DNA of 22,420 bases from an uncultured Rickettsiales bacterium (GTDB lineage: Bacteria > Myxococcota_A > UBA796 > UBA9615 > CAYRNR01). Position 1 is the stretch's first letter. Every line of letters starts with the position of its first letter. Location: assembly GCA_964558555.1 (NCBI GenBank), contig CAZLEO010000158.1, forward strand, positions 1 through 22,420. The letters run 5' to 3'. The notes beneath the pieces are model-generated. The model worked only from the letters and a program-made list of their open reading frames with translations, was not told where the DNA came from and searched no databases. A program made the position numbers and the translations under genes. Below, piece by piece: positions 1-19,219 of the stretch.

Positions 1-228
1 CATGGCCTGGCTGATGCGGCCGCTTCGCGACTCGAGCATCAGGTGGAAGTGATTCGGCATCAGGGTATACGCGTGAACGACCATCCCGAACCGCTGCGGC
101 AGCTCGCCGAGGAGCTCCAGGAACTGTCCGCAGCACTCGTCGTCGAGAAAAATCGTGGCGCGGCGCGCACCGCGGTTCATTGCGTGATGGCGGGCTCCTG
201 GGTAGTCGATGCGGTGAGGTCTGGCCAC
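1..228 (-). mobile_element. IS200/IS605-family (Y1 HUH) transposase-like gene, N-terminal part only. It starts at GTG 228 and runs off the left edge of the window.
   Basis: Minus-strand translation from GTG(228) is MARPHRIDYPGARHHAMNRGARRATIFLDDECCGQFLELLGELPQRFGMVVHAYTLMPNHFHLMLESRSG... It carries the N-terminal R-x-P-R-I-x-x-P-G-x-x-HH-V/A-x-x-RG motif and the HxYxLMPNHFHLL block typical of IS200-like/RAYT transposases. An in-frame TAG lies at 238-240 just upstream. The frame is open to position 1 and shows high-GC third positions. The six-frame track misses it because it has no in-window stop. Confidence 0.7.
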
Positions 229-332
229 AGAGAGAGCCTACCAGGAAAAGCGAAAAACGAAACGAATGGCACCTTTCTCTTCGCCTACAATGCAAGGAAC
301 GAGGAAGCTTCCGAATCGCGAGAGGGGCGAAC

Positions 333-1493
333 ATGCGATCTCACCTGATGCTCTTGATCCTGGGCCTGGGGCTCGTCGCCGCCGGCTGTGGCAGCGGCTA
401 CGACGACGACGACAGCGGCGGTGACGACGACGACGCGGGCGACGACGACGTGGGCGACGACGACGTGTCGGACGACGACGTGTCGGACGACGACGACGAC
501 TTCACGGGCAACCATCCGCCCACCGAGCCCCTGGTCGCCATCGAGCCCGAGGCGCCCGCCGTCGGCGAGGTGATGACCTGCGTCGTGCTCATCGAGTCCG
601 AGGACGTGGACAACGACCCCATCGCCTACGCGTTCGAGTGGGACCGCGAGGGGATGACCACCGGCATCACCGGCGACACGGTGCCGGCCAGCGCCACCAT
701 GGACATGGGCGAGTGGACCTGCCGGGCCAAGGCGTTCGACGGGACCGACTTCAGCCAGGAGGTCACCGCCTCGGCCTTTGTCGGGCCCGGCGGGCTGTAC
801 TTCGACGTCGAGATGACGGCCATGGGGGGGCTCGGACCCGGCACCGCCTCGACCACCATCGAGTGGATCATGGTCGACGACATCTACGCCGATCCGTGGG
901 TCGAGCTGTGCTCGTACACCTACGAGCTCACCGGCACCTACGAGGAGATCGCGCCCGTCCAGGGTGACGACTTCTACGAGTTCATCGACGAGGTGGTCTG
1001 GTGGGACACCGTCCACGCGGTGTACAGCACCTGCCCGGAGAGCCTCCACGACGTGTTCGCCCCGTACACGGATCCCCTCGACGATCCCAACATCAGCCTG
1101 GCGTGGTGGCTCAACCCGTTCGCCATCATCTCGTGCGACCAGATCGCCGCGAACCCGGCTCTGGCCGCGACCTCGTTCCTGGACGACGCGTGGTCCCTGG
1201 GCCTCAGCGACGACACCATGGGCACCTGGTGCAGCGAGTACGGCTCCCTCGCCGCGGCCACCTCCGGCCAGCTGGAGGGCCTGTGGGTCCGTCCCAGCGA
1301 CTCCTCCACCGGCGCCCAGGGCCTCGGCGTCGAGCACCTTCCCGCGCCCAACGGCGATGTCGGCGGCCTGGGGCTGTACGACTCGTGGTCGGTCATGGGG
1401 TTCTTCCACGCCGACACCACCAATCCCAACGAGCCGGGCGAGGGGCTGGAGGGGCTGTACTCGCCGTTCCCGCTGTGGATCTGGAGTTACTGA
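333..1493 (+). CDS. Lipoprotein of unknown function with a poly-Asp tether and a C-terminal globular domain
   Basis: ATG 333 sits 6 nt after GAGAGGGG (RBS). The N-terminus MRSHLMLLILGLGLVAAGC carries a lipobox. It is followed by GSGYDDDDSGGDDDDAGDDDVGDDDVSDDDVSDDDDD, then a Cys-containing folded domain. GC3 codon bias is high. The ORF-track entry at 180 is an upstream extension through low-GC non-coding DNA. Confidence 0.8.
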   Translation: MRSHLMLLILGLGLVAAGCGSGYDDDDSGGDDDDAGDDDVGDDDVSDDDVSDDDDDFTGNHPPTEPLVAIEPEAPAVGEVMTCVVLIESEDVDNDPIAYAFEWDREGMTTGITGDTVPASATMDMGEWTCRAKAFDGTDFSQEVTASAFVGPGGLYFDVEMTAMGGLGPGTASTTIEWIMVDDIYADPWVELCSYTYELTGTYEEIAPVQGDDFYEFIDEVVWWDTVHAVYSTCPESLHDVFAPYTDPLDDPNISLAWWLNPFAIISCDQIAANPALAATSFLDDAWSLGLSDDTMGTWCSEYGSLAAATSGQLEGLWVRPSDSSTGAQGLGVEHLPAPNGDVGGLGLYDSWSVMGFFHADTTNPNEPGEGLEGLYSPFPLWIWSY

Positions 1494-1506: not shown

Positions 1507-2616
1507 TCACCTGGCGTCCCCCGCATAGAACCGATCCAGGAAACCGGGATTGCGCTCGGCGTAGAGCACCGAAGCGCAGCGATCCGCCTCCTCGATCTGT
1601 CGCTGCTCGAACCAGCACCACACGCCGTCCACGTCACCCACGTCGCCGGTCATGAGCCAGTTCACGCAACCGCACCAGTGCACGCAGCGCGCGCGGAGGT
1701 CGCACGCGAGGCAGTCGTCGTTCATCCGGTCCTTGGCCTGGACCAGGGCGTCGCGCCTGGCGGTGTCGATGCCGGACCGGACGTCGCCGATGACGAAGGT
1801 GTCGTCGTCGTCCTCGCGCACGACGCGGTCGCAGGGGTAGAGCCGGCCGCTGGGGGCGACGAAGACCTCCAGGCAGCCGAAGTTGCAGCGGGGGCGGCCG
1901 TGGGGGCGCGAGGTGAGGCCGGTGACGATCTTGCTGTCGAACAGGTTCAGGGCGAGTTGACGGCCGTCCCGATACGCCTGGATGTACCGGTCGCCGGCGG
2001 CGGTGATGGCGTCGTCGAAGCGAGCCCGGTCGCCGGATCGCCAGCGTGGGTGGACGTCGAGGTTGAACGCCTGGTCCCACAGGCCGAGGTCGAGCAGGGC
2101 GTCGATGGAGTCGGCGAGGTGGGACACATTGGCCGGGTGGATCACGGCGAACGCGCGGACCCACAGGTCTGGCGCGCGGTCGAGCAGGAGGCGTACCCCC
2201 CGCTCCACGGCGGCGTAGCTCGGCCGTCCGTTGGGAAAGCGCCGGTTGGCGTCGTGGGCGGCGGGCCCGCCGTCCACGCTCACCGCGACCTGGAAGCCGT
2301 GCCCGGCCAGGAAGTCCGTGACCGAGGCGTCGATCCGCGTGGCGTTGGTCACCAGCATCAACCGAAGGCGGACACCGGCGCGGTCCGCCCGCTGCTGCGC
2401 CCGCAGCGTCAGCTGACGGATGCGGTCGAAGTGGAGCAGGGGTTCTCCCCCGAAGAAGGTCAGCACCCGCTCGTCTCCCGCGCTCGCGTCGGCGAAGAGC
2501 AGGTCGAGGGCGGAGTCCGACACGTCGGCGGGCATGGGTCGGGAGAACTTGCGGCCGCCGAAGCAGTAGCCACACCGCAGGTTGCAGGCGTGGTCCAGGA
2601 TCAGGGCGACGTTCAC
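1507..2616 (-). CDS. Radical SAM/SPASM-domain maturase, anaerobic sulfatase-maturating enzyme (anSME/AslB)-like
   Basis: GTG start. The N-terminus MNVALILDHACNLRCGYCF is a CxxxCxxC radical-SAM cluster motif at residues 11-18, as in anSME. It has the GGEP motif, VTNATRID, and SVDGGPAAHDANRR (the anSME-type SxDGxxxxHDxxR). The C-terminal SPASM cysteines are CNFGC...YPCDR...CLACDLRARCVHWCGC, a CxxCxxxxxCxxxC auxiliary-cluster pattern. The frame is high-GC3. Confidence 0.9.
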   Translation of the reverse strand: MNVALILDHACNLRCGYCFGGRKFSRPMPADVSDSALDLLFADASAGDERVLTFFGGEPLLHFDRIRQLTLRAQQRADRAGVRLRLMLVTNATRIDASVTDFLAGHGFQVAVSVDGGPAAHDANRRFPNGRPSYAAVERGVRLLLDRAPDLWVRAFAVIHPANVSHLADSIDALLDLGLWDQAFNLDVHPRWRSGDRARFDDAITAAGDRYIQAYRDGRQLALNLFDSKIVTGLTSRPHGRPRCNFGCLEVFVAPSGRLYPCDRVVREDDDDTFVIGDVRSGIDTARRDALVQAKDRMNDDCLACDLRARCVHWCGCVNWLMTGDVGDVDGVWCWFEQRQIEEADRCASVLYAERNPGFLDRFYAGDAR

Positions 2617-2635
2617 GGTGTGTCCCGGCGAGGAC

Positions 2636-3232
2636 TCAGCGGCGGGCCCTGCGGCGCCCTCGCCAGCGGACGGACGAGCAGGAGCAGCCCCCGGAGGTCG
2701 CCCAGTCGTCGCCGTAGAGCACGGTCGAGACCTCCAGGTCCAGGCGGACGAAGTCCGACTCGGTGAACTCCCCGGACGATCCCGCCGGAGTCCAGCTGCC
2801 CGACCCGGCCAGGCCGTCGACGAGCTGCACCAGCAACCCGTCCTCGATGTCCTCTCGGAGCGTCTCCTCGAGCAGGTCCTCGCGAGGGTAGCCTTCGAGC
2901 GCTGCGTCGAACCCGGTCAACACCGCGTCCTCTTCCCCCCCGAGGCGCCCCTCGACGTCGCTGCTCACGACCTCGATGAAGACCTCGTAGTACAGGGGAT
3001 CGTCTGCACCGCCTGGGTAGAACTCGCGCCACTCGTCGGTCGAGGGCATGCGCACCCAGTACCCCTCGTTCTGGCCCGTGGCGGCGTAGAGCGCGCTCGC
3101 CCGGCCGATCCCTGCGAGCAGCACCAGCCCCGACGCCGCCCCCATCCGCGCGAGGAAGCGGCGACGGCCCAGCCCCTCCGCTGCGGGCGGGTACTGGCGG
3201 CGCGAATAATCCGTGCGTCGTCGTCGTTTCAC
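2636..3232 (-). CDS. Tat-signal acidic exported protein of 198 aa with a C-terminal GGCSCSS...Arg-rich tail. Candidate substrate or partner of the downstream rSAM/SPASM enzyme.
   Basis: GTG 3232 is preceded by AAGAGAGG (RBS). It has a twin-arginine motif, GRRRFLARMGAASGLVLLAGIGRASALYAA, then a very acidic body. The C-terminus is ...WATSGGCSCSSVRWRGRRRARR*. The stop TGA lies 17 nt before the rSAM GTG, so the two are co-oriented and tightly linked. Codon bias is strong in this frame. The alternative frame (2613-3263) is Arg-rich junk. Confidence 0.7.
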   Translation of the reverse strand: MKRRRRTDYSRRQYPPAAEGLGRRRFLARMGAASGLVLLAGIGRASALYAATGQNEGYWVRMPSTDEWREFYPGGADDPLYYEVFIEVVSSDVEGRLGGEEDAVLTGFDAALEGYPREDLLEETLREDIEDGLLVQLVDGLAGSGSWTPAGSSGEFTESDFVRLDLEVSTVLYGDDWATSGGCSCSSVRWRGRRRARR

Positions 3233-3296
3233 GCGGGGCCTCTCTTCGCGGAGATCTTACCAACTGTTATCTTCGTGGCGACCTGGAGATGACGCG

Positions 3297-4481
3297 ATGA
3301 GTGGATTGGCATTGTGGCAGAGGCCCGTGCTGCGGCGGGACGACGATGGGGGACGCAAGGCCACCTGGCTGGAGCTGTTCTACGACCTGGTGTTCGTGGT
3401 GATCATCGCGCAGCTCTCCCACGGCCTGGCCGCGGACGTGAGCTGGCGTGGGGTGGCCGCCTTTGCCCTGCCGTTCGTGCCGGCGTGGTGGCTGTGGATC
3501 GGGGGCACGATCTACGGCGATCGGTTCGAGACCGAGGACGTCGGCCACCGGGTGCTGACCTTCCTGCAGATGATCCCGGTGGCGGCCATGGCCGTGTTCC
3601 TGCACCACGGCCTGGAGCACGACTCGGCCGGGTTCGCGCTCGCGTATGCGGCCGGCCGCGTGCTGATCATCGTCATGTGGGTTCGTGGCGGGTGGCACAA
3701 CCCCGAAGCCCGGCCGATGACGAACATGTTCGCCGTGGGCTTCTCGATCTCGGTGGTGCTCTTCCTGGGATCGCTGCTGTTGCCCGTGCCCCAGCGCTAC
3801 CAGCTGTGGACCGTGGCGCTGGTGATCGACCTGCTGATCCCGTTGACCACGATCCCGCACCAGCAAGCCCTGCCGAGGTTCAGCACCTCGCGCCTGCCCG
3901 AGCGGTTCGGCCTGTTCACCATCATCGTGCTGGGCGAGACGATCGTGGGCGTGGTGTCGGGCCTGACCGAGGTGCATCACCTGACCTGGCAGACCGGCCT
4001 GGTCGGGTTGCTCGGCATGGCCCTGGCGTTCGGCCTGTGGTGGCTGTACTTCGACGGCATCTCCCACCAGCCGCCGCGGGGCGGGCTGCGTTCGAGCCTG
4101 GCGCGCAACTACCTGCACCTGCCGCTGGTGCTGGGCATCACCGCGCTGGGCGCGGCCGTCCTCGGGGTGGTGGAGCACGCAGACCACGGCGTGGAGGCGC
4201 CGGTGCGCTGGCTGCTGTGCGGTTCGGCGGCCCTGGTGTTCGTCTGTCTGGCCCTGCTGACGCTGGTGGTGAAGCGGTCGTCTCCGCGGTACGGCCGGAC
4301 GATCCCCGTGACCGGGCTGCTGGTGGCGGCCGTGCTGACGCTGGCGCTGGCATCGGTGGACGTGATCCACGGCGCCATCGCCCTGGTCGCAGCGTTGCTG
4401 GTGGTGGTGCTCGCGCTGGTGGTCGTGGACGTGTGGATGCGGCGTGTGCGTGCCGCTAGTACAGCGACTCCAGCGGCGTGA
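3297..4481 (+). CDS. LtrA-like (low temperature requirement A family) polytopic membrane protein
   Basis: ATG 3297 gives MSGLALWQRP...KATWLELFYDLVFVVIIAQLS. The ELFYDLVFV block is the hallmark N-terminal motif of the LtrA family. About 10 predicted TM helices follow. The upstream ORF-track extension (3213) would overlap the divergent gene's start region. Confidence 0.75.
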   Translation: MSGLALWQRPVLRRDDDGGRKATWLELFYDLVFVVIIAQLSHGLAADVSWRGVAAFALPFVPAWWLWIGGTIYGDRFETEDVGHRVLTFLQMIPVAAMAVFLHHGLEHDSAGFALAYAAGRVLIIVMWVRGGWHNPEARPMTNMFAVGFSISVVLFLGSLLLPVPQRYQLWTVALVIDLLIPLTTIPHQQALPRFSTSRLPERFGLFTIIVLGETIVGVVSGLTEVHHLTWQTGLVGLLGMALAFGLWWLYFDGISHQPPRGGLRSSLARNYLHLPLVLGITALGAAVLGVVEHADHGVEAPVRWLLCGSAALVFVCLALLTLVVKRSSPRYGRTIPVTGLLVAAVLTLALASVDVIHGAIALVAALLVVVLALVVVDVWMRRVRAASTATPAA

Positions 4482-5868
4482 GGTAGCCGAAGCCGCCGCC
4501 GATCTCCGCGTTGAGCTCCCACAGCACCTCGCCCTCGGGCGAGACCTCCTCGAGCACACCGTTGGAGCTCCAGGTGACGATGGTGTTGCCGTCTCGCAGC
4601 CGGGACACGTCGCCCAGGCCCACGCAGTACAGGATCGGATCGGCGCGGTACTCCCAGATCTGCTCGATCTCCCAGGCTTCGCCGTCGAGGGAGTACTCCA
4701 CCGCGCGGGAGCCCGCGGGGATGTCGTTGCCGTTGTCGAACACCACCAGACCGCCGGGCAGCAGCTGGAACTGGTGCTGGCCGGCGAACAGCTCGTCCTC
4801 GCCGCCCACCGCGTCGAAGTCGCTGCCCGACCGCCCGAGCTTCCACAGCTGGGTGCCGGTCTCACGCTCGATCTTGTAGATGGCGCTGAGGTGGCGCGCG
4901 CCGAGGTAGTACATGTCCTCCTCGACGCTGTAGTCCAGGGCGTTGGCGTGGGACCAGCGCCCGTCCTGCACGATCTCGGGGTTGAAGGGTTCGTGGTCCC
5001 ACACCGACCAGACCACGCGGGAGGTGCCGTCGGCCGCGAACTCCACCAGCTGGTCGCCCCAGATGGGCTCGTCGTCGACGATCTGGCGATCCTCCATGAG
5101 CACGGCGTAGCTGTCGTCGGGGAGGATCACGAAGTCGTTGTGCACCAGGTCGATGGGGAACGGCTCGGACGCGACGCCGTCGAGGGTGACGCGGGAGAGG
5201 TGTTGCCCCTCGGGCTCCTCGTCGCCCCCCGGGATGCGGTTGGGCAGCATCACGACGCTGCGCTTGTCCGGCGTCAGGTGAGCCCGCGTGATCGGCCACG
5301 CTTCGAACTCGGGGTCCGGGTCGGTGTACCACCACACGTAGTTGCCGTCGCGGTCCAGGATCACGGCGTAGGAGGGGATGGAGAGCACCGTGGTGAGCAG
5401 GAAGCGCGCGTCGTCGCCCACCTCGCCCGCCACGCCGAGATCCACGTCCAGTAGGACGGAGGGGGCCGACCCGGTAGTGACCGTCTGGTCGGGCAGGGCC
5501 GCGCTGCCGTCCTCGTCCTCGACCACCGGCCGGAGCCAGGCCTCGGTGTCCGCCGGGATCCCCAGCAGCAGGGCCTCGAATCCGTCGTCCGTGGCCGTGG
5601 CCGGCGCCCGATCCACGGGGCCGTCACCCACGCCGAACTCCACGTAGGCGTCGGTCACGTCCGTCCGATCGCTGGCCCAGCGCACCGTGACCACCGTGGG
5701 CACGACCTCGCTCAGCTCGATGTCGATCTCGGCGGACGTGTCGTCGTCCCCGACGCCGTCGGGCGGCAGATCCTCCTCCTGGCAGGCGGAGCACAGCACG
5801 CAGCAGGCCAGGGAGAGCAGGATCATGAGGCTGCCGCCGCGGGTGGACATACGCAGGAGGATACCCAT
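4456..5868 (-). CDS. Secreted or lipoprotein beta-propeller, arylsulfotransferase (ASST/Arylsulfotran_2)-like
   Basis: Start ATG 5868 (MGILLRMSTRGGSLMILLSLACCVLCSAC). ATG 5850 (MSTRGG...) is an alternative. The signal peptide has lipobox-like Cys, followed by the acidic tether QEEDLPPDGVGDDD. The body resembles ASST-family propellers (NYVWWYTDPD, LLPGGLVVFDNGND, NTIVTWSSNGVLEEVSPEGEVLWEL). The long ORF-track entry (to 8409) upstream of 5868 is antisense artefact. Confidence 0.65.
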   Translation of the reverse strand: MGILLRMSTRGGSLMILLSLACCVLCSACQEEDLPPDGVGDDDTSAEIDIELSEVVPTVVTVRWASDRTDVTDAYVEFGVGDGPVDRAPATATDDGFEALLLGIPADTEAWLRPVVEDEDGSAALPDQTVTTGSAPSVLLDVDLGVAGEVGDDARFLLTTVLSIPSYAVILDRDGNYVWWYTDPDPEFEAWPITRAHLTPDKRSVVMLPNRIPGGDEEPEGQHLSRVTLDGVASEPFPIDLVHNDFVILPDDSYAVLMEDRQIVDDEPIWGDQLVEFAADGTSRVVWSVWDHEPFNPEIVQDGRWSHANALDYSVEEDMYYLGARHLSAIYKIERETGTQLWKLGRSGSDFDAVGGEDELFAGQHQFQLLPGGLVVFDNGNDIPAGSRAVEYSLDGEAWEIEQIWEYRADPILYCVGLGDVSRLRDGNTIVTWSSNGVLEEVSPEGEVLWELNAEIGGGFGYLTPLESLY

Positions 5869-5946
5869 CCTGCCTGCGCGGACCAAGTGGATTGGGCACT
5901 CCCTCTGGTAGACTGGGCTCGCACTCACACACCGAGGGAGGAACGC

Positions 5947-6516
5947 ATGCGAGGAAGCTGGACGCTGGGTATCGTCTTGGTCGTCGGGATGCTGGGCTGG
6001 GCGACGACCGCACGCGCCGACGTCGTCTTCCCCGCCCCCACCGACTGCCCGCCCGGATCGGTGGGCGACACCCACCACGGGGGACCGCACTGCGCGGCCG
6101 ACCTGTGCGCGGAGGAGCCGGGACGCTGCGCGGCGACCGGAGCGACGTGCCAGGAGCACGGGCTGTGCACACAGCAGCAGCAGGGCGCGTCCCGCGGCGG
6201 CCCGTTCACCTTCAAGGTGGTGCTGGGTGTGTGTGACCCCGAGGGCAACTGCGCGCAGGGCGCGTGCGAGAAGCTGAAGGTGTGCGTGCCCGCGGCGGGT
6301 GGCCCCGGCGCCGGGGAAGCGGCCGAGGAGGTCGAGGAGGTCGAGGCCCCGACCCAGGAGGCCGTGGAGGCGCCGACGGCCGCCCCCGAGGTCACCGAGG
6401 CCGTGGACGAGGTCGAGCGCAAGGGATGCCAGCTGGACGCGGCCGGCTCCGTGGGAGTGGGCTCCTCGATGCTGATCGCGCTGGCGCTGGTCGGAATCAT
6501 CCGACGCCGGCGCTAG
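5947..6516 (+). CDS. Cys-rich secreted protein with a MYXO-CTERM-like C-terminal sorting signal
   Basis: GAGGGAGG RBS, then ATG 5947. The signal peptide is MRGSWTLGIVLVVGMLGWATTARA|DV. A Cys-rich region follows (CPPGS..HCAADLCAEEPGRCAATGATCQEHGLC...CDPEGNCAQGACEKLKVC), then an E-rich spacer. The tail is GCQLDAAGSVGVGSSMLIALALVGIIRRRR*: a Cys motif, a hydrophobic helix and an Arg cluster. Confidence 0.75.
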   Translation: MRGSWTLGIVLVVGMLGWATTARADVVFPAPTDCPPGSVGDTHHGGPHCAADLCAEEPGRCAATGATCQEHGLCTQQQQGASRGGPFTFKVVLGVCDPEGNCAQGACEKLKVCVPAAGGPGAGEAAEEVEEVEAPTQEAVEAPTAAPEVTEAVDEVERKGCQLDAAGSVGVGSSMLIALALVGIIRRRR

Positions 6517-8508: not shown

Positions 8509-8589
8509 GCCGGCCCGCGAGCTCGGACACCTCCGCCTTGACGATTCCCCCCTTTGACGTCAGATTGCGAGCGCCCGAGGAGGTGTGTG

Positions 8590-9723
8590 GTGTACGCGAG
8601 ATGGCTGGCTCTGATGGTGCTGTCGCTGGGCATGACCCTGTTCCTGGCCTGTGACAGCGGGGACGACGACACCGCCGACGACGACGTGAGCGACGACGAC
8701 GACGCGGGTGACGACGACGCGGGTGACGACGACGCGACCCCCATCGTCGAGTACGCGTTCGAGGACCACGCACCCTGGTACTCGTGCCCCGAGTACGACG
8801 CGATCGACGGCACGACGGTGGTGCGGGCGTACGATCCGGCGTACCACTACTTCGGCGAGGAGAACCACCGCACGGTCAACACCGACGTGGAGTTCCCCGA
8901 GGGCGAGTGGAGCCAGGTGGGCCTGTGGCTGGACCTGCACTGCCCGGACGGGGGGACGTGCGACTCCTGGGACCGCTGGGGCAGCGTGGGCTTGGTGCTG
9001 AATCCCGGCGACCCCGAGGACCAGTGGGAGACCCTGGAGCTGGCGCGCCACATCACGCCGTACAAGATCCCCATGTGCCAGTTCATCGACGTCACCCCGG
9101 TGGCCGACCTGCTCGTGGGGACGCAGACGCTGACGTCGTTCATCGACACCTGGGTCGGCCCGGGGCACTCGGACGGGGACGGGTGGTACCTGACCGTGGA
9201 CTTCGTGTTCTTCTCGGGGCCGGCGGCCGGCGCGGCCGAGGTGGTGAACATCTGGGGCACCAAGAACATCACGGTCGGCGAGACCGAGGAGGACGTCAAC
9301 GTGGACTCCCAGGTGGATCCGACCACCGTGGCCATCCCCGCCGACGCCACCCGCGTGGAGGCCCACCTCACCACCACCGGCCACTCCTTCGGCAACTCGC
9401 TCAACTGCGCGGAGTTCTGCCACCTGCGCCAGGACGTGATCGTCAACGAGACGGTGTTCTCGGTGGACCCGTGGCGCGACGACTGCGAGGAGAATCCGGT
9501 CAGCCCGCAGTACGGGACGTGGGAGTACGACCGCAACGGGTGGTGCCCCGGCGCCATCTCCGTGGGCCACGTGTTCGACATCACCGAGGCCGTCGAGCTC
9601 GGCGCCGACAACGTCATCGACTTCGACATCCTCACGACCACGGGCGTGGAGTACAACAACAACAGCCCCGTGGACCTGTTGCCCTACGAGATCGTCGCGC
9701 TGCGCATCTACATCTACCGCTGA
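8590..9723 (+). CDS. Peptide-N-glycosidase F (PNGase F)-like lipoprotein
   Basis: GAGGAGG at 8577-8583, then GTG 8590. The N-terminus MVYARWLALMVLSLGMTLFLAC carries a lipobox. A D-rich tether follows (DSGDDDTADDDVSDDDDAGDDDAGDDDA). The body resembles PNGase F: CPDGGTCDSWDRWGSV (cf. CPNKTCDEWDRYANV), RHITPYKIP (cf. RFITPY), IDVTPVADLL, CAEFCHLRQDVIVNETVF (cf. CAEWCFRTHTIAINNANTF), and RNGWCPGA (cf. RAGWCPGM). Confidence 0.8.
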   Translation: MYARWLALMVLSLGMTLFLACDSGDDDTADDDVSDDDDAGDDDAGDDDATPIVEYAFEDHAPWYSCPEYDAIDGTTVVRAYDPAYHYFGEENHRTVNTDVEFPEGEWSQVGLWLDLHCPDGGTCDSWDRWGSVGLVLNPGDPEDQWETLELARHITPYKIPMCQFIDVTPVADLLVGTQTLTSFIDTWVGPGHSDGDGWYLTVDFVFFSGPAAGAAEVVNIWGTKNITVGETEEDVNVDSQVDPTTVAIPADATRVEAHLTTTGHSFGNSLNCAEFCHLRQDVIVNETVFSVDPWRDDCEENPVSPQYGTWEYDRNGWCPGAISVGHVFDITEAVELGADNVIDFDILTTTGVEYNNNSPVDLLPYEIVALRIYIYR

Positions 9724-9773: not shown

Positions 9774-10781
9774 ATGCTCGACCGACCGATCCTTCACCTG
9801 CTGCTTTGCCTGATCCTCGCTGGCGTCCTGCCGGGTTGCCCGGGGGCCGACGACGACGACGTGGCGGACGACGACGCCACGGCGGACGACGACTCGGCCA
9901 CCGACGACGACGACGACAGCGCGACCTCGGCGTTCGCCGCCTCGGCGGTGGACGACCTGGAGGCGGCGTCCTACGCGTCCACCATCGCGCTGGAGCAGTA
10001 CGCGTTGCTCGCGGACCTCGCGGGCGACGACGCGGTGTACGCCCTGTTCTCGCCGCTGGCCGACGGCATCGACCCGGGGGGGCTCGAGCTGCCCGAGGGC
10101 ACGTGCCCCGACGTCTCGTTCTCGCTGGGCGAGGGCATCGTGCTGGACTACGCCGAGGGGTGCACCAACTTCCGCGGCCAGCAGATCGAGGGGCGGCTGG
10201 TCCTGGCGCGGTCCGACGACGAGTTCGGCGTGGAGGTGACCTTCGACGAGTACGTGCGCAACGGGCAGGTGGCGTTCTCGGGCAGCAGCGTGTTGGGTCT
10301 GGGCACGCGCGCCGGGCTGTCGTTCATCGGCTCGGGGCCGCTGGACGTGACGTCGTTCAGCATCACGCACGCCCTGGACAGCTCCACGCCGTACCCCGGG
10401 TCGCAGATCCTCGGCCCGCACGACGGCCCGATCGGGGATCTCGAAGCCCCCTCGGTCGGTCCGACCGCATTCGGCGACGGGCCCAGCGTGGGCACGTATG
10501 GGGTGGCCTGGATCACCGCGGACGGATCCTCGGTGTGGATCATCGTCCCCGAGGGCACGCTGCATCACGGCACCGACGCCCCCGATGCTTGCCGCTGCCC
10601 TGACGGCGGTGTGCTCGCCCAGTACCACGAGCAGCGCGGGCACTGGACCGCGATCACCTTCGACGACCAGTGCGGATTCGAGCTGTGGATCAACGCCGCG
10701 GGTACCGATCAGGTGGGCACCTTCGGCAGTGACGAGCTGCCCCAGCTGCGGGCGCTGCTGTGCGATCCGCTGGAGGGATGA
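9774..10781 (+). CDS. Lipoprotein, unknown function
   Basis: GAGGGGAA RBS, then ATG 9774. The N-terminus MLDRPILHLLLCLILAGVLPGC carries a lipobox. The tether is PGADDDDVADDDATADDDSATDDDDDS. A folded C-terminal domain has 6 Cys. It lies 50 nt after the PNGase F-like gene on the same strand. Confidence 0.8.
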   Translation: MLDRPILHLLLCLILAGVLPGCPGADDDDVADDDATADDDSATDDDDDSATSAFAASAVDDLEAASYASTIALEQYALLADLAGDDAVYALFSPLADGIDPGGLELPEGTCPDVSFSLGEGIVLDYAEGCTNFRGQQIEGRLVLARSDDEFGVEVTFDEYVRNGQVAFSGSSVLGLGTRAGLSFIGSGPLDVTSFSITHALDSSTPYPGSQILGPHDGPIGDLEAPSVGPTAFGDGPSVGTYGVAWITADGSSVWIIVPEGTLHHGTDAPDACRCPDGGVLAQYHEQRGHWTAITFDDQCGFELWINAAGTDQVGTFGSDELPQLRALLCDPLEG

Positions 10782-10783
10782 GG

Positions 10784-11635
10784 ATGCGGGGCGCTGCCAC
10801 GGCGCTGGGGGTCGCGGCGATCCTGATCGTCGGCTGCCCGGCCGACGAGCCGCGCGACGGGGGATCGGGGAACTACACGGGGGACCTAGACGACGATCCG
10901 GACTTCACCGTTCCGAACAGCCGGATCGAGGTCAAGACGTGGCTGGACTACGGCCAGACCTCGCTGGAGGGCTGGTTCGCGGACGAGCCGCTGCCCCGCC
11001 ACCACGAGCCCGCCGAGGTGACCGGCAACTGCCGGTTGATGACGTACACACCGTCCACGTGCGACCCGCCGTGTGACGTGGACTCCACCTGTCTCGCCGG
11101 GGAGTGTGTGGCGTGGCCCGTGCGGGAGGACCGCGGTGATCTGCTGTGGACGTGGCCCGACGGCGAGCAGACCGTGTCGCCGGACGGGACGCTGCTGTAC
11201 TACGCGACCGGATCGGCGAATTCCGAGGGCGACGTGGCCATCGAGGTGGACACCCTCGCCCTGACCGTGCCCACCATCGGCCCGCCCGTGGAGGACGGCT
11301 CGTGGGTGGATACCATCACGTCGCGCGGGTCGGGGGATGCGGTGCTGCGCTGGCACGACCCGATCCTCGACGCGCGCGTCCGCCTGCACATGACCGACTG
11401 CGTGGGCAGCCACGGCGGGTTCGCGCCGGCCGAGATCGAGTGCGAGGGGCCGGACACGGGCGAGCTGGCCGTGCCCGGGTCGTTCCTCACCACGTTGGAG
11501 GCCGGCGACTGGAGCCACGGCGAATGCGGCAGCCACACCTTCGAGCGCTACCACGCCGCGGCGCCCGAGGACGATCCGCTGACCCGCCTCGAGACGGTGG
11601 GAGCGGGTTCGCTGTTCTACTTTCCCGGCATGTGA
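10784..11635 (+). CDS. Cys-rich lipoprotein, unknown function
   Basis: GGAGGG at 10772-10777, then ATG 10784, which is 3 nt after the upstream stop. The N-terminus MRGAATALGVAAILIVGC carries a lipobox, then PADEPRDGG...DLDDDPD. Multiple Cys pairs are present (CRLMTYTPSTCDPPCDVDSTCLAGEC). Confidence 0.8.
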   Translation: MRGAATALGVAAILIVGCPADEPRDGGSGNYTGDLDDDPDFTVPNSRIEVKTWLDYGQTSLEGWFADEPLPRHHEPAEVTGNCRLMTYTPSTCDPPCDVDSTCLAGECVAWPVREDRGDLLWTWPDGEQTVSPDGTLLYYATGSANSEGDVAIEVDTLALTVPTIGPPVEDGSWVDTITSRGSGDAVLRWHDPILDARVRLHMTDCVGSHGGFAPAEIECEGPDTGELAVPGSFLTTLEAGDWSHGECGSHTFERYHAAAPEDDPLTRLETVGAGSLFYFPGM

Positions 11636-11671
11636 TCGACAATCGGATCACACCTTCTCGGGGGAGGAGCC

Positions 11672-12763
11672 ATGACCCAGGATTTCACCTGCGCCGCCTG
11701 CGGCGGCGAAGTCGAGTGGTCGCCCGTCCGTCAGGAGGTCGTGTGCTCGCACTGCGCGGCACCGACCCGGCTGGAGCGGCCGGCCGCGGGGGATGTCGAA
11801 CGTCGTGACGTGACCGTCAAGGCGCTCAAGCTGGGGCGCGCGTACGGCGTGGAGACGTCCGCGATCCAGTGCGGCCGCTGCGGCGCCACCATCGATCTGG
11901 GGCCCCACATCGCGCTGACCCAGTGCGCGTTCTGCGGCAGCGACCAGCTGCGCGACTACGCGGACGAGGACCCGATGAAGCCGGACGGCATCGTGCCGTT
12001 CCGGCTGGACCGCGATTCCCTGGAGGATCGCCTGCGTGAGTGGGCCGACGAGGACCCTCAGACCCCGTCCGACGTGGCCGACCACCTCGAACTCACCACG
12101 GCACAGGGTGTGTACCTCCCCGCGTGGATCTTCCAGGCCCGGGCGTCCGGAGCCTGGGAGTGCACGGTGAAGATCCCCAAGGGCAAGGACAACTGGAAGA
12201 AGGAGGAACGCGCCGGTGGGTACGATCGGGAGTTCATCGATCGGCTGGTGTTCGCGTCCTCGTTCGCCGACGGCCTGACGGACTTCTTCTACGACGCCCG
12301 GCAGATCGTGCCCTACGACGCGCGCTACCTCGCCGGCTTCCCGGCGGAGCGGGCCCAGCGGGCGGTCGAGGACGCGTGGACGTGGTGCAAGGAACAGTTC
12401 GTGGGCGAGTACCGCGACGAGTGCGAGCAGGAGGGGGCGGCCGCTTGTACCGCGGAGCACGGCCACGTGGTCGAGACCCGGGTGGATCCCAGCTGGTCGC
12501 GGGAGACCTATTTCCTCTGCCTGGTCCCCACCTGGTTCACCACCTACACCTACCGCGGCAAGTCCCACCGGGCCGTGGTCAACGGGCTGACCGGCGAGTG
12601 CTCCGGGGAGCTACCCTCGGACGCCCGGAAGGCGTGGCTGTACGAGCGCATCGGCAAGCCCAACACGCCCCAGCGCCGCGTGGCCATGCAGGTCGCCTTC
12701 GCCGTGGGGGTGTTCTCGGTGTTCTTCATCGCCATGGCGATCCTGATCGCCACCAACGACTGA
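11672..12763 (+). CDS. Double zinc-ribbon protein with a C-terminal transmembrane anchor
   Basis: GGGGGAGGAG RBS, then ATG 11672. Two CxxC-x(n)-CxxC ribbons are present: CAACGGEV...CSHC and CGRCGATIDLGPHIALTQCAFCG. A soluble region of about 250 aa follows, then the C-terminal helix MQVAFAVGVFSVFFIAMAILIA. It is the last gene of the 8590-12763 co-oriented string. Confidence 0.8.
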   Translation: MTQDFTCAACGGEVEWSPVRQEVVCSHCAAPTRLERPAAGDVERRDVTVKALKLGRAYGVETSAIQCGRCGATIDLGPHIALTQCAFCGSDQLRDYADEDPMKPDGIVPFRLDRDSLEDRLREWADEDPQTPSDVADHLELTTAQGVYLPAWIFQARASGAWECTVKIPKGKDNWKKEERAGGYDREFIDRLVFASSFADGLTDFFYDARQIVPYDARYLAGFPAERAQRAVEDAWTWCKEQFVGEYRDECEQEGAAACTAEHGHVVETRVDPSWSRETYFLCLVPTWFTTYTYRGKSHRAVVNGLTGECSGELPSDARKAWLYERIGKPNTPQRRVAMQVAFAVGVFSVFFIAMAILIATND

Positions 12764-12764
12764 C

Positions 12765-13628
12765 TCAGAACACCTGGAAGTCCTCGATCTCGTAGCCCAC
12801 GTAGGGATCGTGGGTGCCGTGGGGATCGATGTGCCACACGCTGTTGCCCTCCGGGCAGTGGCCGTGCACGCCGGAGTCGGCGGCGATGTAGACGGTGCGG
12901 TCGGTGGGATCCACCGCGACCCCCTCGGAGCCGCCGGCGCAGACCGGGTTCGGCCCCAGGCGTACCGCGGGGCACCCCGCGCAGTCGGGGTCGAGCTGGT
13001 ACACGCCGTCGGGGTCCACGAGGTACAGGGTGCCGTCGGTGGAATCCAGCGCGACCCCCTCGCCAGCCACGCCGGTGTCGAGGGACTGGACGAGCTGCCA
13101 CGACGGCAGCGCGTACAGCTCGGCCAGGGGCGATCCCTCGGCCTTGACCCAGAGGCCGCCGCGGGCCGCGTCGTAGGCCAGCATGCCCGGCTTGTGGCCG
13201 CCGAGATCGCACATCGCCGGATCCGCCGGCACCGTGGTCAGCAGGTTGCCCGCCAGATCGACCTCGAAGAATGAACAGTGGCCCTGCAGATCGCGCACCG
13301 GCGTCCCTGGCGCGGCCTCGTCGAACGCCCAGATCCAGAAGGTGCGGCGGGTCGTGTCGAAGGTGAGGCCCTCGAGGACGGTGACGTGGTCGCTGACGTC
13401 GATCTCGGCGATCAGGACGTTGTCGGTGTCCTTGACCACGATGGTGTCCTCGACCAGCGACGCGTCTGCGAGGGCGTCGAGGGTGGCGCTGGCCTTGCCG
13501 AGGTAGAGGATCTCGGCGGTATCGTCGCAGGCCATGCCGGTGACGCCGGTGATGGAGCTGCAGGCCGAGAGCGCCAGGCCGAGGGCGAGCGCGCAGGCGA
13601 TGAGGGACGGAGCGTTGTGGGGATTCAT
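12765..13628 (-). CDS. Lipoprotein, beta-propeller-like, unknown function
   Basis: A perfect AAGGAGG sits 7 nt before ATG 13628. The N-terminus MNPHNAPSLIACALALGLALSAC carries a lipobox. It has Cys pairs (CAGCP, CAGG, HGHCPEG). Its stop is 1 nt from the stop of the convergent zinc-ribbon gene. Confidence 0.85.
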   Translation of the reverse strand: MNPHNAPSLIACALALGLALSACSSITGVTGMACDDTAEILYLGKASATLDALADASLVEDTIVVKDTDNVLIAEIDVSDHVTVLEGLTFDTTRRTFWIWAFDEAAPGTPVRDLQGHCSFFEVDLAGNLLTTVPADPAMCDLGGHKPGMLAYDAARGGLWVKAEGSPLAELYALPSWQLVQSLDTGVAGEGVALDSTDGTLYLVDPDGVYQLDPDCAGCPAVRLGPNPVCAGGSEGVAVDPTDRTVYIAADSGVHGHCPEGNSVWHIDPHGTHDPYVGYEIEDFQVF

Positions 13629-13729
13629 GGGGCCTCCTTTCCCGGGTGGTCACGCCGGGGCCGCGGAGGTCACGTGCATGTGTAGACCGTGTGTATCCTC
13701 GGGGTGGGGGCTGCTATCGTCGACCCACG

Positions 13730-14869
13730 ATGGGCACCCGCAACGCCACGCTGATCGCGTTCACCCTCGCCCTGCTGCTGGGCTGCTCGGGCGAGGGCGA
13801 GGGCTTCGGCGTGGACGACGACACCGTGGCGGACGACGACGCCGTGGACGACGACACGGGCGCTGACGACGACGACGACACGGTCCCCCAGGGCGGATGT
13901 CCCAACGCCTGGCACGGCTTCGGGGACGACCCCGATCCCGATTCCTGGGACATGCTGGTGCTGTACGCCATCGGCGACCCCAACTTCGACATCGGCGAGC
14001 GGCACCTGCGGGACTACGGGCTGCAGGTCGTGGACTACGGCCCGGGCGAGGACACGTACTTCATGGTACGCAACGCCGGGCTGTGCTTCAGCACGGCCGG
14101 TGGGATCTTCCGCGGCGACGACGAGTACTACGGCGGCGACTTCTTCAGCGTCAGCGTGACCATGAACGCGGACGACGGCTGGGGCGGCGGCATCCAGGTC
14201 ATCCCCGACGATGGCGGCGAGCCGTACCTGCTGGAGCGGTCCACCCCCCTGCGCGGCCTGGCCATCGAGCCCGACGGCGTCGGCGGTTTCGTGGTGTGTG
14301 GCGCCACCGCCCAGGAGGACGACAACGCCATCTTGTGGGTGAACGGCGACGGCGACGAGGTGGTCGAACACCCCCTGCCCGACGGCGGCTCGTGTTACGA
14401 CGTGGCCGAGGGATGGGACGGCACCTTCTGGGTGACCGATCTCGCCAACAACCTCCTGCTGAACTTCGACCTGGACACCGGCGAGTTCGAACCGTGCTGG
14501 GAGCTCCCCGAACCTGGCCTGGACTGGGTGGTGAGCGAGACCGCCGGCGATCAGATCATGGTCGCGGCGGACAACGAGATCTGGGTCTACGAGGCAGACA
14601 CCGGCGAGGACTGGCGCTACGCCAGCATGCCGCCGCTGGGCATCACCTCCCACCACGTCACCAACATCCACTGGTCGTTCTCGTGGGGGGTGACCTCCAT
14701 GTCCAAGGTCATGCGCGACTACCCGACGTCCGGGCTGTGGGGGCCCCACTCGGCGCGGATCGAGGGTGGACCCGATCCCGACGGCGAGTTGTTCGAGTTC
14801 CAGGGGGCGGACCAGATCCTGGATGGTGAGGTGATCCTGGACTACGTGCTGCTGGGGGATCTCCAGTAA
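13730..14869 (+). CDS. Lipoprotein with poly-Asp tether, unknown function
   Basis: ATG 13730 gives MGTRNATLIAFTLALLLGC (lipobox), then SGEGEGFGVDDDTVADDDAVDDDTGADDDDD. A folded C-terminal domain follows. The ORF-track start (13646) is an upstream extension lacking a signal peptide. Confidence 0.8.
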   Translation: MGTRNATLIAFTLALLLGCSGEGEGFGVDDDTVADDDAVDDDTGADDDDDTVPQGGCPNAWHGFGDDPDPDSWDMLVLYAIGDPNFDIGERHLRDYGLQVVDYGPGEDTYFMVRNAGLCFSTAGGIFRGDDEYYGGDFFSVSVTMNADDGWGGGIQVIPDDGGEPYLLERSTPLRGLAIEPDGVGGFVVCGATAQEDDNAILWVNGDGDEVVEHPLPDGGSCYDVAEGWDGTFWVTDLANNLLLNFDLDTGEFEPCWELPEPGLDWVVSETAGDQIMVAADNEIWVYEADTGEDWRYASMPPLGITSHHVTNIHWSFSWGVTSMSKVMRDYPTSGLWGPHSARIEGGPDPDGELFEFQGADQILDGEVILDYVLLGDLQ

Positions 14870-16960: not shown

Positions 16961-17313
16961 CCTACAACCAGGGGTCCCTTTACTGGCCTGATTAGCCAGG
17001 TTACCGAGGTCCGATGGGGGAGTCCCGCGCGTCCGGCCGGCCGTATTCGCAGCGGAGGTGCGCCGCGACCGATCTCCGATCGGGGACGGCGTGCCGAGGC
17101 CGCGGGTGCGGCAGCGGGGACGACGCCAGCAGCCTGCGGGATCCGTCCGCCCCAGCGGTCGCAATGGCGGTCGTGACAGCGGACGCACGTGGGCTCCGCG
17201 TCGACAACCGTGGCTGGATCCGCGGGTTCCCTCTGACGACCGCGGCGCCGGCTGGCGATTCGGAATTCATGGAGCGCAGTGCATGGGGCACTGCCAGGCA
17301 AGGAGGTGACGTC

Positions 17314-18417
17314 ATGTTCAAGCGTTACAAGGTTCTGCGGCACGAGTTCGGGCTGAAGTACGTCGAGGACGAGTTCGTCGGCGTGCTGATGCCGGGTGTG
17401 CACTGGTTCGTCGACCTCCTGGGACGCATCCGGGTGGACGTGGTGTCCGCGCGGGAGCCGTTCCTGGTACGGGAAGACAACGACGTGCTGGTCAAGTCCG
17501 GCGCGCTCGAGGGCGTGGCCCAGGTGATCGAGTTGACCGACCGCCAGCGTGCGCTGGTGTGGATCGACGGGCGCTTCGACCGTCTGCTGGTCCCGGGCCT
17601 GCACGTGATCCTGGATGGATTCCATCGCATCGAGGTGGAGCGGGTCGAACTCGACGGGGAGATCTTCGCCCACGCCGAGATCGAGCCGATCCTCGCGCGG
17701 CTCGTCCACAACCCGCACGGGCTGGACGTGTTCGCGGTCCAGGACGGCATTGTCGGCCTGGTGTACCTCGACGGCGTGCTGAAGCACGAGCTGGAGCCGG
17801 GACGCTACGCGTTCTGGCGCGGCGTCGGCATGCAGTCCCGCCACCTGGTGGACCTGCGCGAGACCTCCGTCGACGTCGGCGGCCAGGAGCTGATGACCGC
17901 GGACAAGGTCAGCCTGCGCATCAACGCCGTGGCGACCTACCGTGTCGTGGACGCGCGCCGCAGCGTGTCCGCGGTCTCCGACCTGCGCGGTGCCCTGTAC
18001 CGCGAGGCGCAGCTGGCGCTGCGCGCCGTGGTCGGAACCCGCGAGCTCGACGTGATCCTGAGCGACAAGGACGCCGTGGCGTCCGAGCTCGAGGCGGTCC
18101 TGAAGCAGCGCGCGGCCGACTACGGTGTCGCGCTGGTCTCCTTCGGCATCAAGGACGTGATCCTGCCGGGTGAGATGAAGGACCTGCTCAACCAGGTGAC
18201 CGAGGCGCGCAAGGCGGCCGAGGCCGCGGTGATCACTCGCCGCGAGGAGGTCGCCGCCATGCGCAGCCAGGCCAACAGCGCCCGGCTGCTGCGTGACAAC
18301 CCGACCCTGATGCGCCTGCGTGAGATCGAGGCGCTCGAGCGGGTCTCCACCCACGCCAAGCTCACCGTCGTACTCGGTGAGCAGGGCCTCGCCGATCGGG
18401 TGATCAACCTGGTGTGA
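17314..18417 (+). CDS. SPFH/Band-7 (stomatin/slipin-like) domain protein
   Basis: AAGGAGGTGA RBS, then ATG 17314. The C-terminal half has the Band-7 signature (LRINAVATYRVVD...ELDVILSDKDAVASELEAVLKQRAADYGVALVSFGIKDVILPGEMKDLLNQVTEARKAAEA). No TM helix is present. The ORF-track N-terminal extension (17014) is Arg/Gly-rich non-coding. Confidence 0.9.
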   Translation: MFKRYKVLRHEFGLKYVEDEFVGVLMPGVHWFVDLLGRIRVDVVSAREPFLVREDNDVLVKSGALEGVAQVIELTDRQRALVWIDGRFDRLLVPGLHVILDGFHRIEVERVELDGEIFAHAEIEPILARLVHNPHGLDVFAVQDGIVGLVYLDGVLKHELEPGRYAFWRGVGMQSRHLVDLRETSVDVGGQELMTADKVSLRINAVATYRVVDARRSVSAVSDLRGALYREAQLALRAVVGTRELDVILSDKDAVASELEAVLKQRAADYGVALVSFGIKDVILPGEMKDLLNQVTEARKAAEAAVITRREEVAAMRSQANSARLLRDNPTLMRLREIEALERVSTHAKLTVVLGEQGLADRVINLV

Positions 18418-19108: not shown

Positions 19109-19219
19109 GGTTCCCCTCGGCGATCGAGTCTACCGCGAGCGCGCCACGTCCGCTTCTACTGCGCAGGGCCGCGTGAATTCCGCGCGCGCGGTGTTACCCT
19201 GGCCAGCGAGGAGGCCGAG

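Follow-up and report, generated by a model that had tools for sequence, protein, structure and literature searches.

Radical S-adenosylmethionine (SAM) enzymes with a SPASM domain are known as maturases of proteins as well as of peptides. One of them, QhpD, installs Cys-Asp and Cys-Glu thioethers in a protein subunit whose final location is the periplasm. PapB, the maturase of the ranthipeptide freyrasin, accepts Cys-Xn-Asp with n = 0-6 and tolerates a changed orientation of thiol and carboxylate (PMC9413430). ChlB, a three-residue cyclophane synthase, has been crystallised in complex with its precursor's leader (PDB 9gm3/9gmc), and CteB served Mitchell and co-workers to define a six-position active-site profile (PMC10288494). 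Among the C-terminal sorting signals of myxobacteria, MYXO-CTERM was described by Haft as having an invariant Cys, often with a second Cys nearby that is not adjacent to it. The present analysis concerns a pair of genes on contig CAZLEO010000158.1 of an uncultured bacterium placed in the Myxococcota_A, of which positions 1 to 22,420 were analysed (this whole stretch is referred to as the window). The pair consists of a gene for a radical SAM/SPASM enzyme and, directly upstream of it, a gene for a putative substrate with an export signal (the partner). Together they may well form a dedicated maturase-substrate module (rough probability 0.55), in which the enzyme would dock on an N-terminal tag of the partner and modify the latter in the cytoplasm, ahead of export by the twin-arginine translocation (Tat) pathway. 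Beyond sequence, synteny, and predicted structure, this reading is built on inference.

A conserved two-gene unit

The gene for the enzyme (1507-2616, minus strand; 369 amino acids [aa]) was retrieved from the list of open reading frames (ORFs) and matched the Pfam families Radical_SAM and Fer4_12. The partner gene (2636-3232, minus strand; 198 aa), taken from the same list, precedes it in the same orientation. Both ORFs and their motifs were present as described in an earlier, sequence-only reading of this DNA, except that the gap between the stop codon of the partner and the start of the enzyme gene measures 19 nucleotides (nt) (2617-2635, minus strand) and not 17 nt. This spacing implies that the two genes are probably co-transcribed. 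Both ORFs displayed a coding-type GC bias at the third codon position (0.92 for the enzyme and 0.89 for the partner, in a window with 69% GC). The partner starts with GTG at 3232, which is supported by the conservation of its N-terminus among homologues, and a Shine-Dalgarno-like sequence (GAAGAGAGG; 3239-3247, minus strand) lies 6 nt before this start.

The collections searched for homologues consisted mostly of fragments of metagenome-assembled genomes (MAGs). All close homologues of the enzyme that could be placed on a contig (79-50% identity) were directly preceded by a gene of 165-245 aa without Pfam match, and these upstream genes were homologous to the partner (hmmsearch, E 1e-49 to 1e-68). 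The close loci (L001-L005, L166-L170, L173, and L174) represent nine distinct loci after merging of near-duplicate contigs, and the partner homologue was found upstream in nine out of nine. The enzyme and its partner are a conserved two-gene unit, as had been surmised from the window alone. Within this unit the genes overlap or are separated by up to ~80 nt, with one exception (L169, 255 nt). Among distant homologues of the enzyme (44-27% identity), a gene bearing the tag described below was located immediately upstream or downstream. In a neighbour-joining tree of the enzymes, the clades grouped by partner type. Other conserved neighbours (a protease, a transporter, or a CPBP enzyme) were looked for around the homologues of the enzyme and none was found.

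Several loci carry more than one copy of the partner gene. A tandem paralogue in L001 (4526-5190, plus strand) appears frameshifted; the intact copy of this locus is less close to the window protein. L004 contains a second intact copy (2925-3536, plus strand) 2.4 kb upstream. Similarly, tag-bearing genes occur in tandem in L104 (three genes) and L024 (two genes). In L167 (2035-4260, minus strand) and L168 (6105-8621, minus strand), the gene convergent with that of the enzyme codes for a fusion of a Ser/Thr kinase with an FGE-sulfatase domain, which has the fold of the formylglycine-generating enzyme; L166 has a kinase nearby without this domain. Fusions of this kind are common in Myxococcota, and their presence at these two loci could be a coincidence.

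An N-terminal tag ahead of the signal peptide

The partner begins with a tag (MKRRRRTDYSRRQYP, with Y9, Y14, and P15; 3188-3232, minus strand), a candidate docking element that is followed by the signal GRRRFLARMGAASGLVLLAGIG. When 25 partners of four phyla (Myxococcota, Planctomycetota, Verrucomicrobiota, and Clostridia) were aligned, the tag always lay equally far from Met1, with the consensus M-[KDE]-[RKI]-x(4-5)-(Y)-x-x-(P/G)-x-Y-P, in summary form M-K/R-x(6-7)-Y-x4-Y-P. Its invariant Tyr is residue 13-15 and precedes the Arg-Arg motif and the hydrophobic core of the signal, which is Tat-like or of the lipoprotein type; the first Tyr and the Pro vary among partners. Downstream of the tag, the sequences of distant partners are unrelated and comprise low-complexity Pro/Asp-rich lipoproteins, a family with HGxGxGC...SEEEA...WLKxQGVI, and others.

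A hidden Markov model (HMM) of the tag was searched in all stop-to-stop frames of at least 40 codons of 175 loci (1.5 Mb). It matched next to the enzyme gene in 30 of the 59 loci with a related enzyme, defined by a score against the window enzyme of 133 bits or more, and in 28 of these 30 the match was on the same strand as the enzyme gene. Ten of the 30 loci were independent of the building of the HMM; apart from these ten, the tag HMM, like the motif statistics given below, was derived from the same data that it describes. Genome and metagenome scans with a profile of the enzyme, dominated by SCIFF-type enzymes, were reused as a negative control, and the tag was found beside SCIFF-type or other SPASM enzymes in none of 116 loci. 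The tag is restricted to the loci of these enzymes.

The tag is interpreted as a docking element on the precedent of ChlB, an enzyme without a RiPP recognition element (RRE; RiPP, ribosomally synthesised and post-translationally modified peptide) that was nonetheless crystallised with the leader of its precursor. Alternatively, the tag itself might be modified, for instance on its invariant Tyr14, in which case the N-terminal peptide set free by signal-peptide cleavage would act as the functional product. In favour of this explanation, no other element is conserved across all partner types and phyla, the tag always lies at the same distance from Met1, and what follows it consists of unrelated folds or low-complexity sequence. 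It is nevertheless very improbable. Conserved leaders of RiPPs are, as a rule, recognised by their maturases and left unmodified, and the leader in the ChlB complex is bound. In addition, the first Tyr and the Pro of the tag are variable, and the partner domains co-diversify with the enzyme clades, which would not be expected if the tag alone mattered.

A distinct family of partners (~260-300 aa) was found directly upstream of the enzyme gene in L092, L094, L095, L096, L015, and L102. These proteins have the tag, a lipobox, a segment HG(D/E)G(R/Y)G(A/S)xGC(V/I)xVxPPxF(L/I)SExEA, and the C-terminus WLKxQG(V/I)I. The enzymes of loci of this type carry YPCVQF and not YPC(D/E)R. This partner family is absent from Pfam and NCBIfam.

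Family placement of the enzyme

The enzyme is a member of the radical SAM/SPASM family, as its cluster motif, seven-Cys SPASM motif, and fold are all present. The CxxxCxxC motif (C11, C15, and C18; 2563-2586, minus strand) binds the SAM-cleaving 4Fe-4S cluster; across 42 homologues, C15 and C18 are invariant and C11 is nearly so. The SPASM region (1615-1887, minus strand), with two auxiliary clusters, comprises C244-x12-G257-x4-C262, C302xxC305x5C311x3C315, C317, and C334, and all its cysteines are invariant in the same 42 sequences. The motif SVDGGPAAHDANRR begins at residue 113. The protein, of ~370 aa, has a full SPASM domain and no N-terminal RRE domain, and scored 56.8 bits against Pfam PF04055.

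The sequence-only reading had considered the CxxxCxxC motif, the motif SVDGGPAAHDANRR, and the SPASM cysteines as signatures distinguishing anaerobic sulfatase-maturating enzymes (anSMEs). However, all three are common to SPASM enzymes generally, and the family models ranked otherwise. The best NCBIfam match was PapB (NF047865; 188.2 bits, cutoff 340), followed by QhpD (TIGR03906; 140.2 bits, cutoff 453), and then by models of nif11-like, CXXX-repeat, CcpM, and SCIFF thioether maturases, while the two anSME models reached 73.8 bits (TIGR03942, cutoff 349.45) and 51.8 bits (NF010321, cutoff 441). HMMs of cyclophane synthases gave 57-70 bits. The enzyme remained below the cutoff of every HMM tested, so that no curated family was reached. 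By sequence, its best PDB match was CteB (70 bits, full length), with anSMEcpe at 49 bits. By structure, the AlphaFold2 model of the enzyme (mean predicted local distance difference test [pLDDT] 93.7) matched CteB and anSMEcpe equally well, with a template-modelling score of ~0.8.

At the six active-site positions defined on CteB by Mitchell and co-workers, the window enzyme has F-F-V-S-D-R, and the enzymes of the sister subgroup have Y-F-V-S-D/E-R, compared with Y-F-T-S-Q-R in PapB, F-F-T-S-H-Q in CteB/SCIFF, and F-Q-Q-S-D-F in anSMEcpe. Matches to PapB amount to three of six positions for the window enzyme and four of six for the sister subgroup, and those to anSME to three and two of six, respectively. 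According to the alignments, the loop YPCDR (residues 260-264; 1825-1839, minus strand) lines the active site. Its D263 aligns with the Asp of the YPCD motif of anSMEcpe (D277, the proposed catalytic base), and its R264 is the residue found in PapB. The two residues after 'PC' are specific to the clade, namely D/E-R in the present one, Q-R in PapB, H-Q in SCIFF/CteB, and V-Q in another tag-bearing clade.

Among 18 further enzymes of the wider clade, from Myxococcota, Planctomycetota, Verrucomicrobiota, Kiritimatiellia, and Clostridia, 17 were likewise PapB-like below the cutoff, and an anSME was not found among the 18. Scores against the PapB model ranged across the clade from 172 to 225 bits for full-length members, with 149 bits for a truncated one; the enzyme of L037 (Kiritimatiellia) had no NCBIfam match at E <= 1e-35. 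It was also considered whether the enzymes with 'YPCER' from Planctomycetota and Verrucomicrobiota were simply the anSMEs of these sulfatase-rich phyla; this was rejected, since all of them scored best on PapB, below its cutoff. To judge from its HMM scores and active-site profile, the window enzyme is a member of an uncurated clade nearest to the PapB-type thioether synthases, and not an anSME. What remains of the proposed likeness to anSMEs is the build of ~370 aa without an N-terminal recognition domain, the full SPASM domain, and the active-site Asp, whereas the HMM placement and the missing pair of active-site Gln residues speak against it.

The partner protein and its two subgroups

The partner is not a sulfatase, as stated in the sequence-only reading: it had no match in Pfam or NCBIfam, and neither Foldseek against the PDB nor Pfam revealed a sulfatase-like fold. 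Its acidic character applies to the core, with 31 Asp/Glu against 6 Lys/Arg in residues 51-185 (isoelectric point 4.05), but both termini are strongly basic, and the whole protein has an isoelectric point of 4.79. The export signal noted earlier is Tat-like (3083-3169, minus strand), consisting of RRRFLA and a hydrophobic stretch within GRRRFLARMGAASGLVLLAGIG, followed by RASALYA. The Tat model TIGR01409 (cutoff 16.7 bits) was passed by the close homologues of L002 (19.2 bits), L004 (16.9 bits), and L166 (17.9 bits). The folded core (residues ~55-170; 2723-3070, minus strand) was predicted by AlphaFold2 as beta-beta-beta-alpha-alpha-alpha-beta with pLDDT 70-88 from a shallow alignment of eight sequences, the tag, signal, and C-terminal tail being predicted as disordered. 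Foldseek against the PDB returned the periplasmic domain of FliL and T-fold proteins, all weak (E 5e-3 or worse).

Homologues of the partner are almost invisible to direct search. A word-seeded search returned the window protein alone, a full HMMER search over 1.84 billion representatives gave five further matches, four of which look like true homologues, and a profile search gave eight matches. The fifth, P0125, a repeat protein of 1022 aa, looks spurious. As direct searches were too poor, the family was reached through the neighbourhoods of the enzyme homologues. Pfam and NCBIfam were run on ~25 partner proteins of all types, and no curated family was matched.

Two subgroups of partners share the same folded core, in which P63 is invariant. 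Subgroup 1 comprises the window protein, L002, the L001 paralogue, the two L004 copies, L166, and L173. It has an Arg in place of the lipobox Cys (NLAS-R or NLAG-R) and a C-terminal tail that, in the window protein (VLYGDDWATSGGCSCSSVRWRGRRRARR; 2639-2722, minus strand), consists of an acidic-Trp motif, GGCSCSS (C183 and C185; 2672-2692), and an Arg cluster (2639-2668). The seven tails follow the invariant pattern (D/E)(D/E)-W/Y-x3-GGC(S/Q)CSSV-(P/A/R)-(W/M), then 3-7 Arg, and in all seven an Asp lies 2-7 residues before the first Cys. Subgroup 2 comprises L167-L170, L174, and P0126-P0133. It has a lipobox Cys after the Tat-like Arg-Arg motif and ends in acidic residues followed by Phi-D-G-D-Phi, as in EEVDGDLAEVD and NDIDGDIG. 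The lipobox Cys and the C-terminal GGCxC are mutually exclusive between the subgroups. A related Gly-centred motif, often L-D-G-D-V or M-G-D-Phi followed by Pro, recurs in the low-complexity partners, where 43 instances of Phi-x-G-x-Phi were counted, compared with 7.5 +/- 2.6 after shuffling of the residues, a count that is post hoc and inflated by internal repeats; it closes the proteins of subgroup 2 and in many others comes after the lipobox.

The tail of subgroup 1 brings MYXO-CTERM to mind. The MAG of L166 contains a genuine MYXO-CTERM, TGGCKCAT-(transmembrane helix)-WRRRDR, to be compared with the partner tail ATGGCSCSS-VPW-RDRRRSRR (the partner-side sequence in this comparison being ATGGCSCSSVPWRDRRRSRR). 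In the window tail, merely three residues (VRW) stand between the Cys signature and the Arg cluster, and the MYXO-CTERM model TIGR03901 gave no match to the tail at E up to 1. The tail resembles a MYXO-CTERM without its membrane helix, and its appearance exactly where the lipobox Cys disappears suggests that one anchor may have been swapped for another. A Cys-rich secreted protein of the window itself (5887-6516, plus strand) has a MYXO-CTERM-like tail (KGCQLDAAGSVGVGSSMLIALALVGIIRRRR) that scored 15.7 bits, just under the TIGR03901 cutoff of 20, and speaks for an origin of this DNA in the Myxococcota. The partner variant P0124, with the tag and a Tat-like signal, has a tail (EEWDLMGVIGRPSCACRLPSP) that combines Phi-x-G-x-Phi with CxC and has no Arg cluster; judging from this sequence, it is a bridge between the two tail types.

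The sequence-only reading suggested formylglycine as the modification, which an anSME-like enzyme would make from a Cys or Ser of the C-terminal tail. The build of the enzyme, the alignment of Asp263 with the YPCD Asp of anSMEcpe, a structural match to anSMEcpe equal to that of CteB, and an exported substrate that would be modified before export are compatible with this chemistry, and five of the seven subgroup-1 tails have S-V-(P/A)-(W/M)-R, which fits the motif (C/S)x(P/A)xR. Yet this motif fails in the tails of the window (SVRWR) and of L002 (SVPWP), no instance of it was found anywhere in the 198-aa window partner, and a tail so rich in Arg would be expected to have one at +4 by chance. 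Furthermore, the anSME HMM scores are far under their cutoffs, the enzyme has Phe and Val where anSME has Gln (profile positions 2 and 3), subgroup 2 has no Cys/Ser tail at all, and the partner lacks a sulfatase fold. Formation of formylglycine is hence rated improbable. The underlying logic of a modification in the cytoplasm that precedes export is reasonable.

Proposed mechanism and its standing

In the proposed module, the enzyme would dock on the 15-residue tag MKRxRRxxYxxxxYP ahead of the twin-arginine signal of the partner and would modify the partner in the cytoplasm. The modified protein would then be exported via the Tat pathway, and the tag would be removed along with the signal peptide. 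As to the chemistry, a thioether between C183 or C185 and D175 or D176 of the tail (YGDDWATSGGCSCSS) is put forward tentatively for the subgroup of the window, following the behaviour of PapB, QhpD, and CteB.

Several observations weigh against this reading or limit its reach. No tag match was obtained at about half of the loci with a related enzyme, where some contigs are cut and some tags are divergent, and the tag of the window itself scored only 7.9 bits against the tag HMM. The TIGR01409 scan reported no match for the window copy of the partner. The enzymes of subgroup 2 (50-54% identity to the window enzyme) are nearly as similar to it as the distant enzymes of subgroup 1 (L004 and L166, 56-57%), and yet their partners are without the tail; for that reason, the GGCxC tail is unlikely, on these comparisons, to be the target of the enzyme family as a whole, and the C-terminal Cys peptide favoured as target by the sequence-only reading is confined to one subclade. 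The lipobox Cys is the sole Cys of the subgroup-2 partners, several low-complexity partners have no Cys beyond the lipobox, and L010 and L093 have none whatsoever, so that a Cys thioether cannot account for the family as a whole. Lastly, the GGCxC and the Arg tail may be a sorting signal derived from MYXO-CTERM.

An alternative explanation is independent of Cys. According to this, the enzyme would act on a feature shared by the family, such as the acidic Phi-x-G-x-Phi or a region close to the tag, by epimerisation, by a C-C or C-O cross-link, or by C-beta oxidation of Asp, and the GGCxC with its Arg tail would be a separate anchor, derived from MYXO-CTERM and replacing the lipobox. The mutual exclusion of lipobox Cys and GGCxC, with NLAS/G-R standing where subgroup 2 has its lipobox Cys, fits such an anchor, as do the parallel with the genuine MYXO-CTERM of the same MAG and the two-Cys description by Haft; the excess of Phi-x-G-x-Phi over shuffled sequences and its place at the end of the subgroup-2 tails would fit the shared target. 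Nevertheless, the transmembrane segment that defines MYXO-CTERM is missing, TIGR03901 does not recognise the tail, and the motif statistic suffers from the bias mentioned above. In P0124, which has no Arg cluster, the CxC is retained and directly follows an LMGVI motif, which ties the Cys pair to the motif shared by the family and not to sorting. In addition, the closest characterised relatives of the enzyme are all makers of Cys thioethers. An explanation without Cys is therefore considered unlikely, although clearly less so than formylglycine.

It could also be argued that there is no enzyme-substrate relation and that the enzyme acts on a product encoded elsewhere, as the related loci without a tag match would allow. 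This is scarcely credible, as the adjacency persists down to 27-30% enzyme identity in four phyla, whichever of the two genes comes first and despite changes in all other neighbours, and as the tag did not occur beside other SPASM enzymes. The enzyme does not score as an anSME, which goes against the sequence-only reading, but homologues of the partner do co-occur with the enzyme gene, which sustains its idea of a pair.

If the maturase-substrate module is real, it may belong to a widespread class of exported proteins and lipoproteins modified by radical SAM enzymes, a generalisation to which slightly less than an even chance is given. In such a class, the recognition leader would form part of the n-region of the signal peptide, be it of the Tat or the Sec/lipoprotein type, and would be removed by the very export and signal-peptide cleavage that the protein undergoes. 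As substrates one would expect full-size proteins whose cores differ, such as Gly-centred repeats, the HGxGxGC domain, or the helix-less, MYXO-CTERM-like Cys tail of the window protein. Removal of a leader inside a signal peptide would require no dedicated protease. The organism of the window would then possess an acidic envelope protein that is modified in the cytoplasm and exported by Tat, and its Cys tail may connect radical SAM chemistry with the C-terminal sorting signals of myxobacteria. Further systems could be sought by the combination of M-K-x7-Y-x4-Y-P, a signal peptide, and an adjoining RRE-less, PapB-like enzyme.

Other genes of the window

The gene divergent from the pair encodes an LtrA protein (PF06772, E 7e-82), in line with the earlier annotation as LtrA-like. 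The absence of a sulfatase gene was also borne out, as a sulfatase domain was found in none of the plausible ORFs of the window. A hidden ORF for a small, Cys-rich precursor was sought in the intergenic gaps of 13, 19, and ~61 nt, and none fits.

A lipoprotein with a signal ending in LSLACCVLCSACQ (4456-5799, minus strand) belongs to the arylsulfotransferase ASST family (PF05935, 68.5 bits; PF14269). This places sulfate-ester chemistry beside the locus, but the product is no sulfatase, and formylglycine is not known to occur in it. An ORF of 437 aa (180-1493, plus strand), which probably starts at an internal Met, has the lipobox LVAAGCGSG and, after it, a long linker of poly-Asp (DDDDSGGDDDDAGDDDVGDDD), and matched no protein family; a linker of the same kind occurs in partner homologues of other MAGs (DDDSAGDDDSAG). 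Further genes code for a protein with a PNGase F C-terminal domain (8554-9723, plus strand), an SPFH/Band 7 protein (17014-18417, plus strand), and a small multihaem c-type cytochrome with CxxxxCH/CxxCH (21568-22101, minus strand). Several ORFs of 290-450 aa (10760-14869 and 19082-20428) had no family match.

Comparison with known systems

The tail of the window protein shares with MYXO-CTERM, which is associated with the myxosortase MrtX, the GGCxC with two nearby, non-adjacent Cys and the terminal Arg cluster, and is almost identical to the genuine MYXO-CTERM found in a related MAG. It differs in the absence of a transmembrane segment and of a TIGR03901 match, in the lack of a CPBP protease nearby, and in the Tat-type signal of the protein that bears it.

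ChlB, the maturase of ChlA, and the other three-residue cyclophane synthases are, like the window enzyme, RRE-less SPASM enzymes of ~375 aa, with a template-modelling score of 0.78. The similarity to ChlB by sequence is low (32 bits), and the substrates of these enzymes are short peptides without signal peptides. QhpD, which acts on QhpC, was the second-best HMM. It has an N-terminal extension of ~95 aa, the match of the window enzyme starting at profile position 96 and staying under the family cutoff, and none of qhpA, qhpB, qhpE, and qhpF was found among the neighbours in the window.

The anSMEs (AtsB and anSMEcpe) resemble the window enzyme in being RRE-less proteins of ~370 aa with a full SPASM domain and a YPCD loop, with the structural match referring to 4K36-4K39. 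Similarly, the anSME-sulfatase pairs involve a protein substrate with an export signal that is modified in the cytoplasm. In contrast, anSMEs have two active-site Gln residues (profile positions 2 and 3) where the window enzyme has Phe and Val, the Asp and Ser being shared. Moreover, the window has no sulfatase, its partner has no CxPxR, and the scores against the anSME models (74 and 52 bits) fall far short of their cutoffs (349 and 441).

PapB and its substrate PapA are closest on the side of the enzyme. PapB is the best HMM across the clade, three to four of the six profile positions agree, including the Arg after the auxiliary-cluster Cys, and the window tail offers Cys and Asp within the spacing that PapB tolerates. 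The differences concern the score, the architecture, and the substrate. A genuine PapB from Paenibacillus (L034) scored 431 bits, above the cutoff of 340 that the window enzyme does not reach. It comprises 474 aa with an N-terminal extension of ~100 aa, presumably an RRE, that the window enzyme lacks, so that its CxxxCxxC begins at about residue 107 instead of residue 11. Profile position 5 is Gln in PapB and Asp/Glu in the clade of the window. PapA is a CX3D-rich peptide of ~50 aa, and a CX3D peptide of 51 aa is encoded upstream of the L034 PapB, whereas the window partner is a protein of 198 aa with an export signal.

No radical SAM system whose leader forms part of a signal peptide was found in the curated family libraries, and a literature search on SPASM with twin-arginine and on radical SAM with lipobox returned no description of such a system, which is weak evidence given that the searchable literature is incomplete. 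If the proposed module is correct, it would extend radical SAM maturation from the short RiPP peptides and the sulfatases of the systems described so far to varied exported proteins and lipoproteins.

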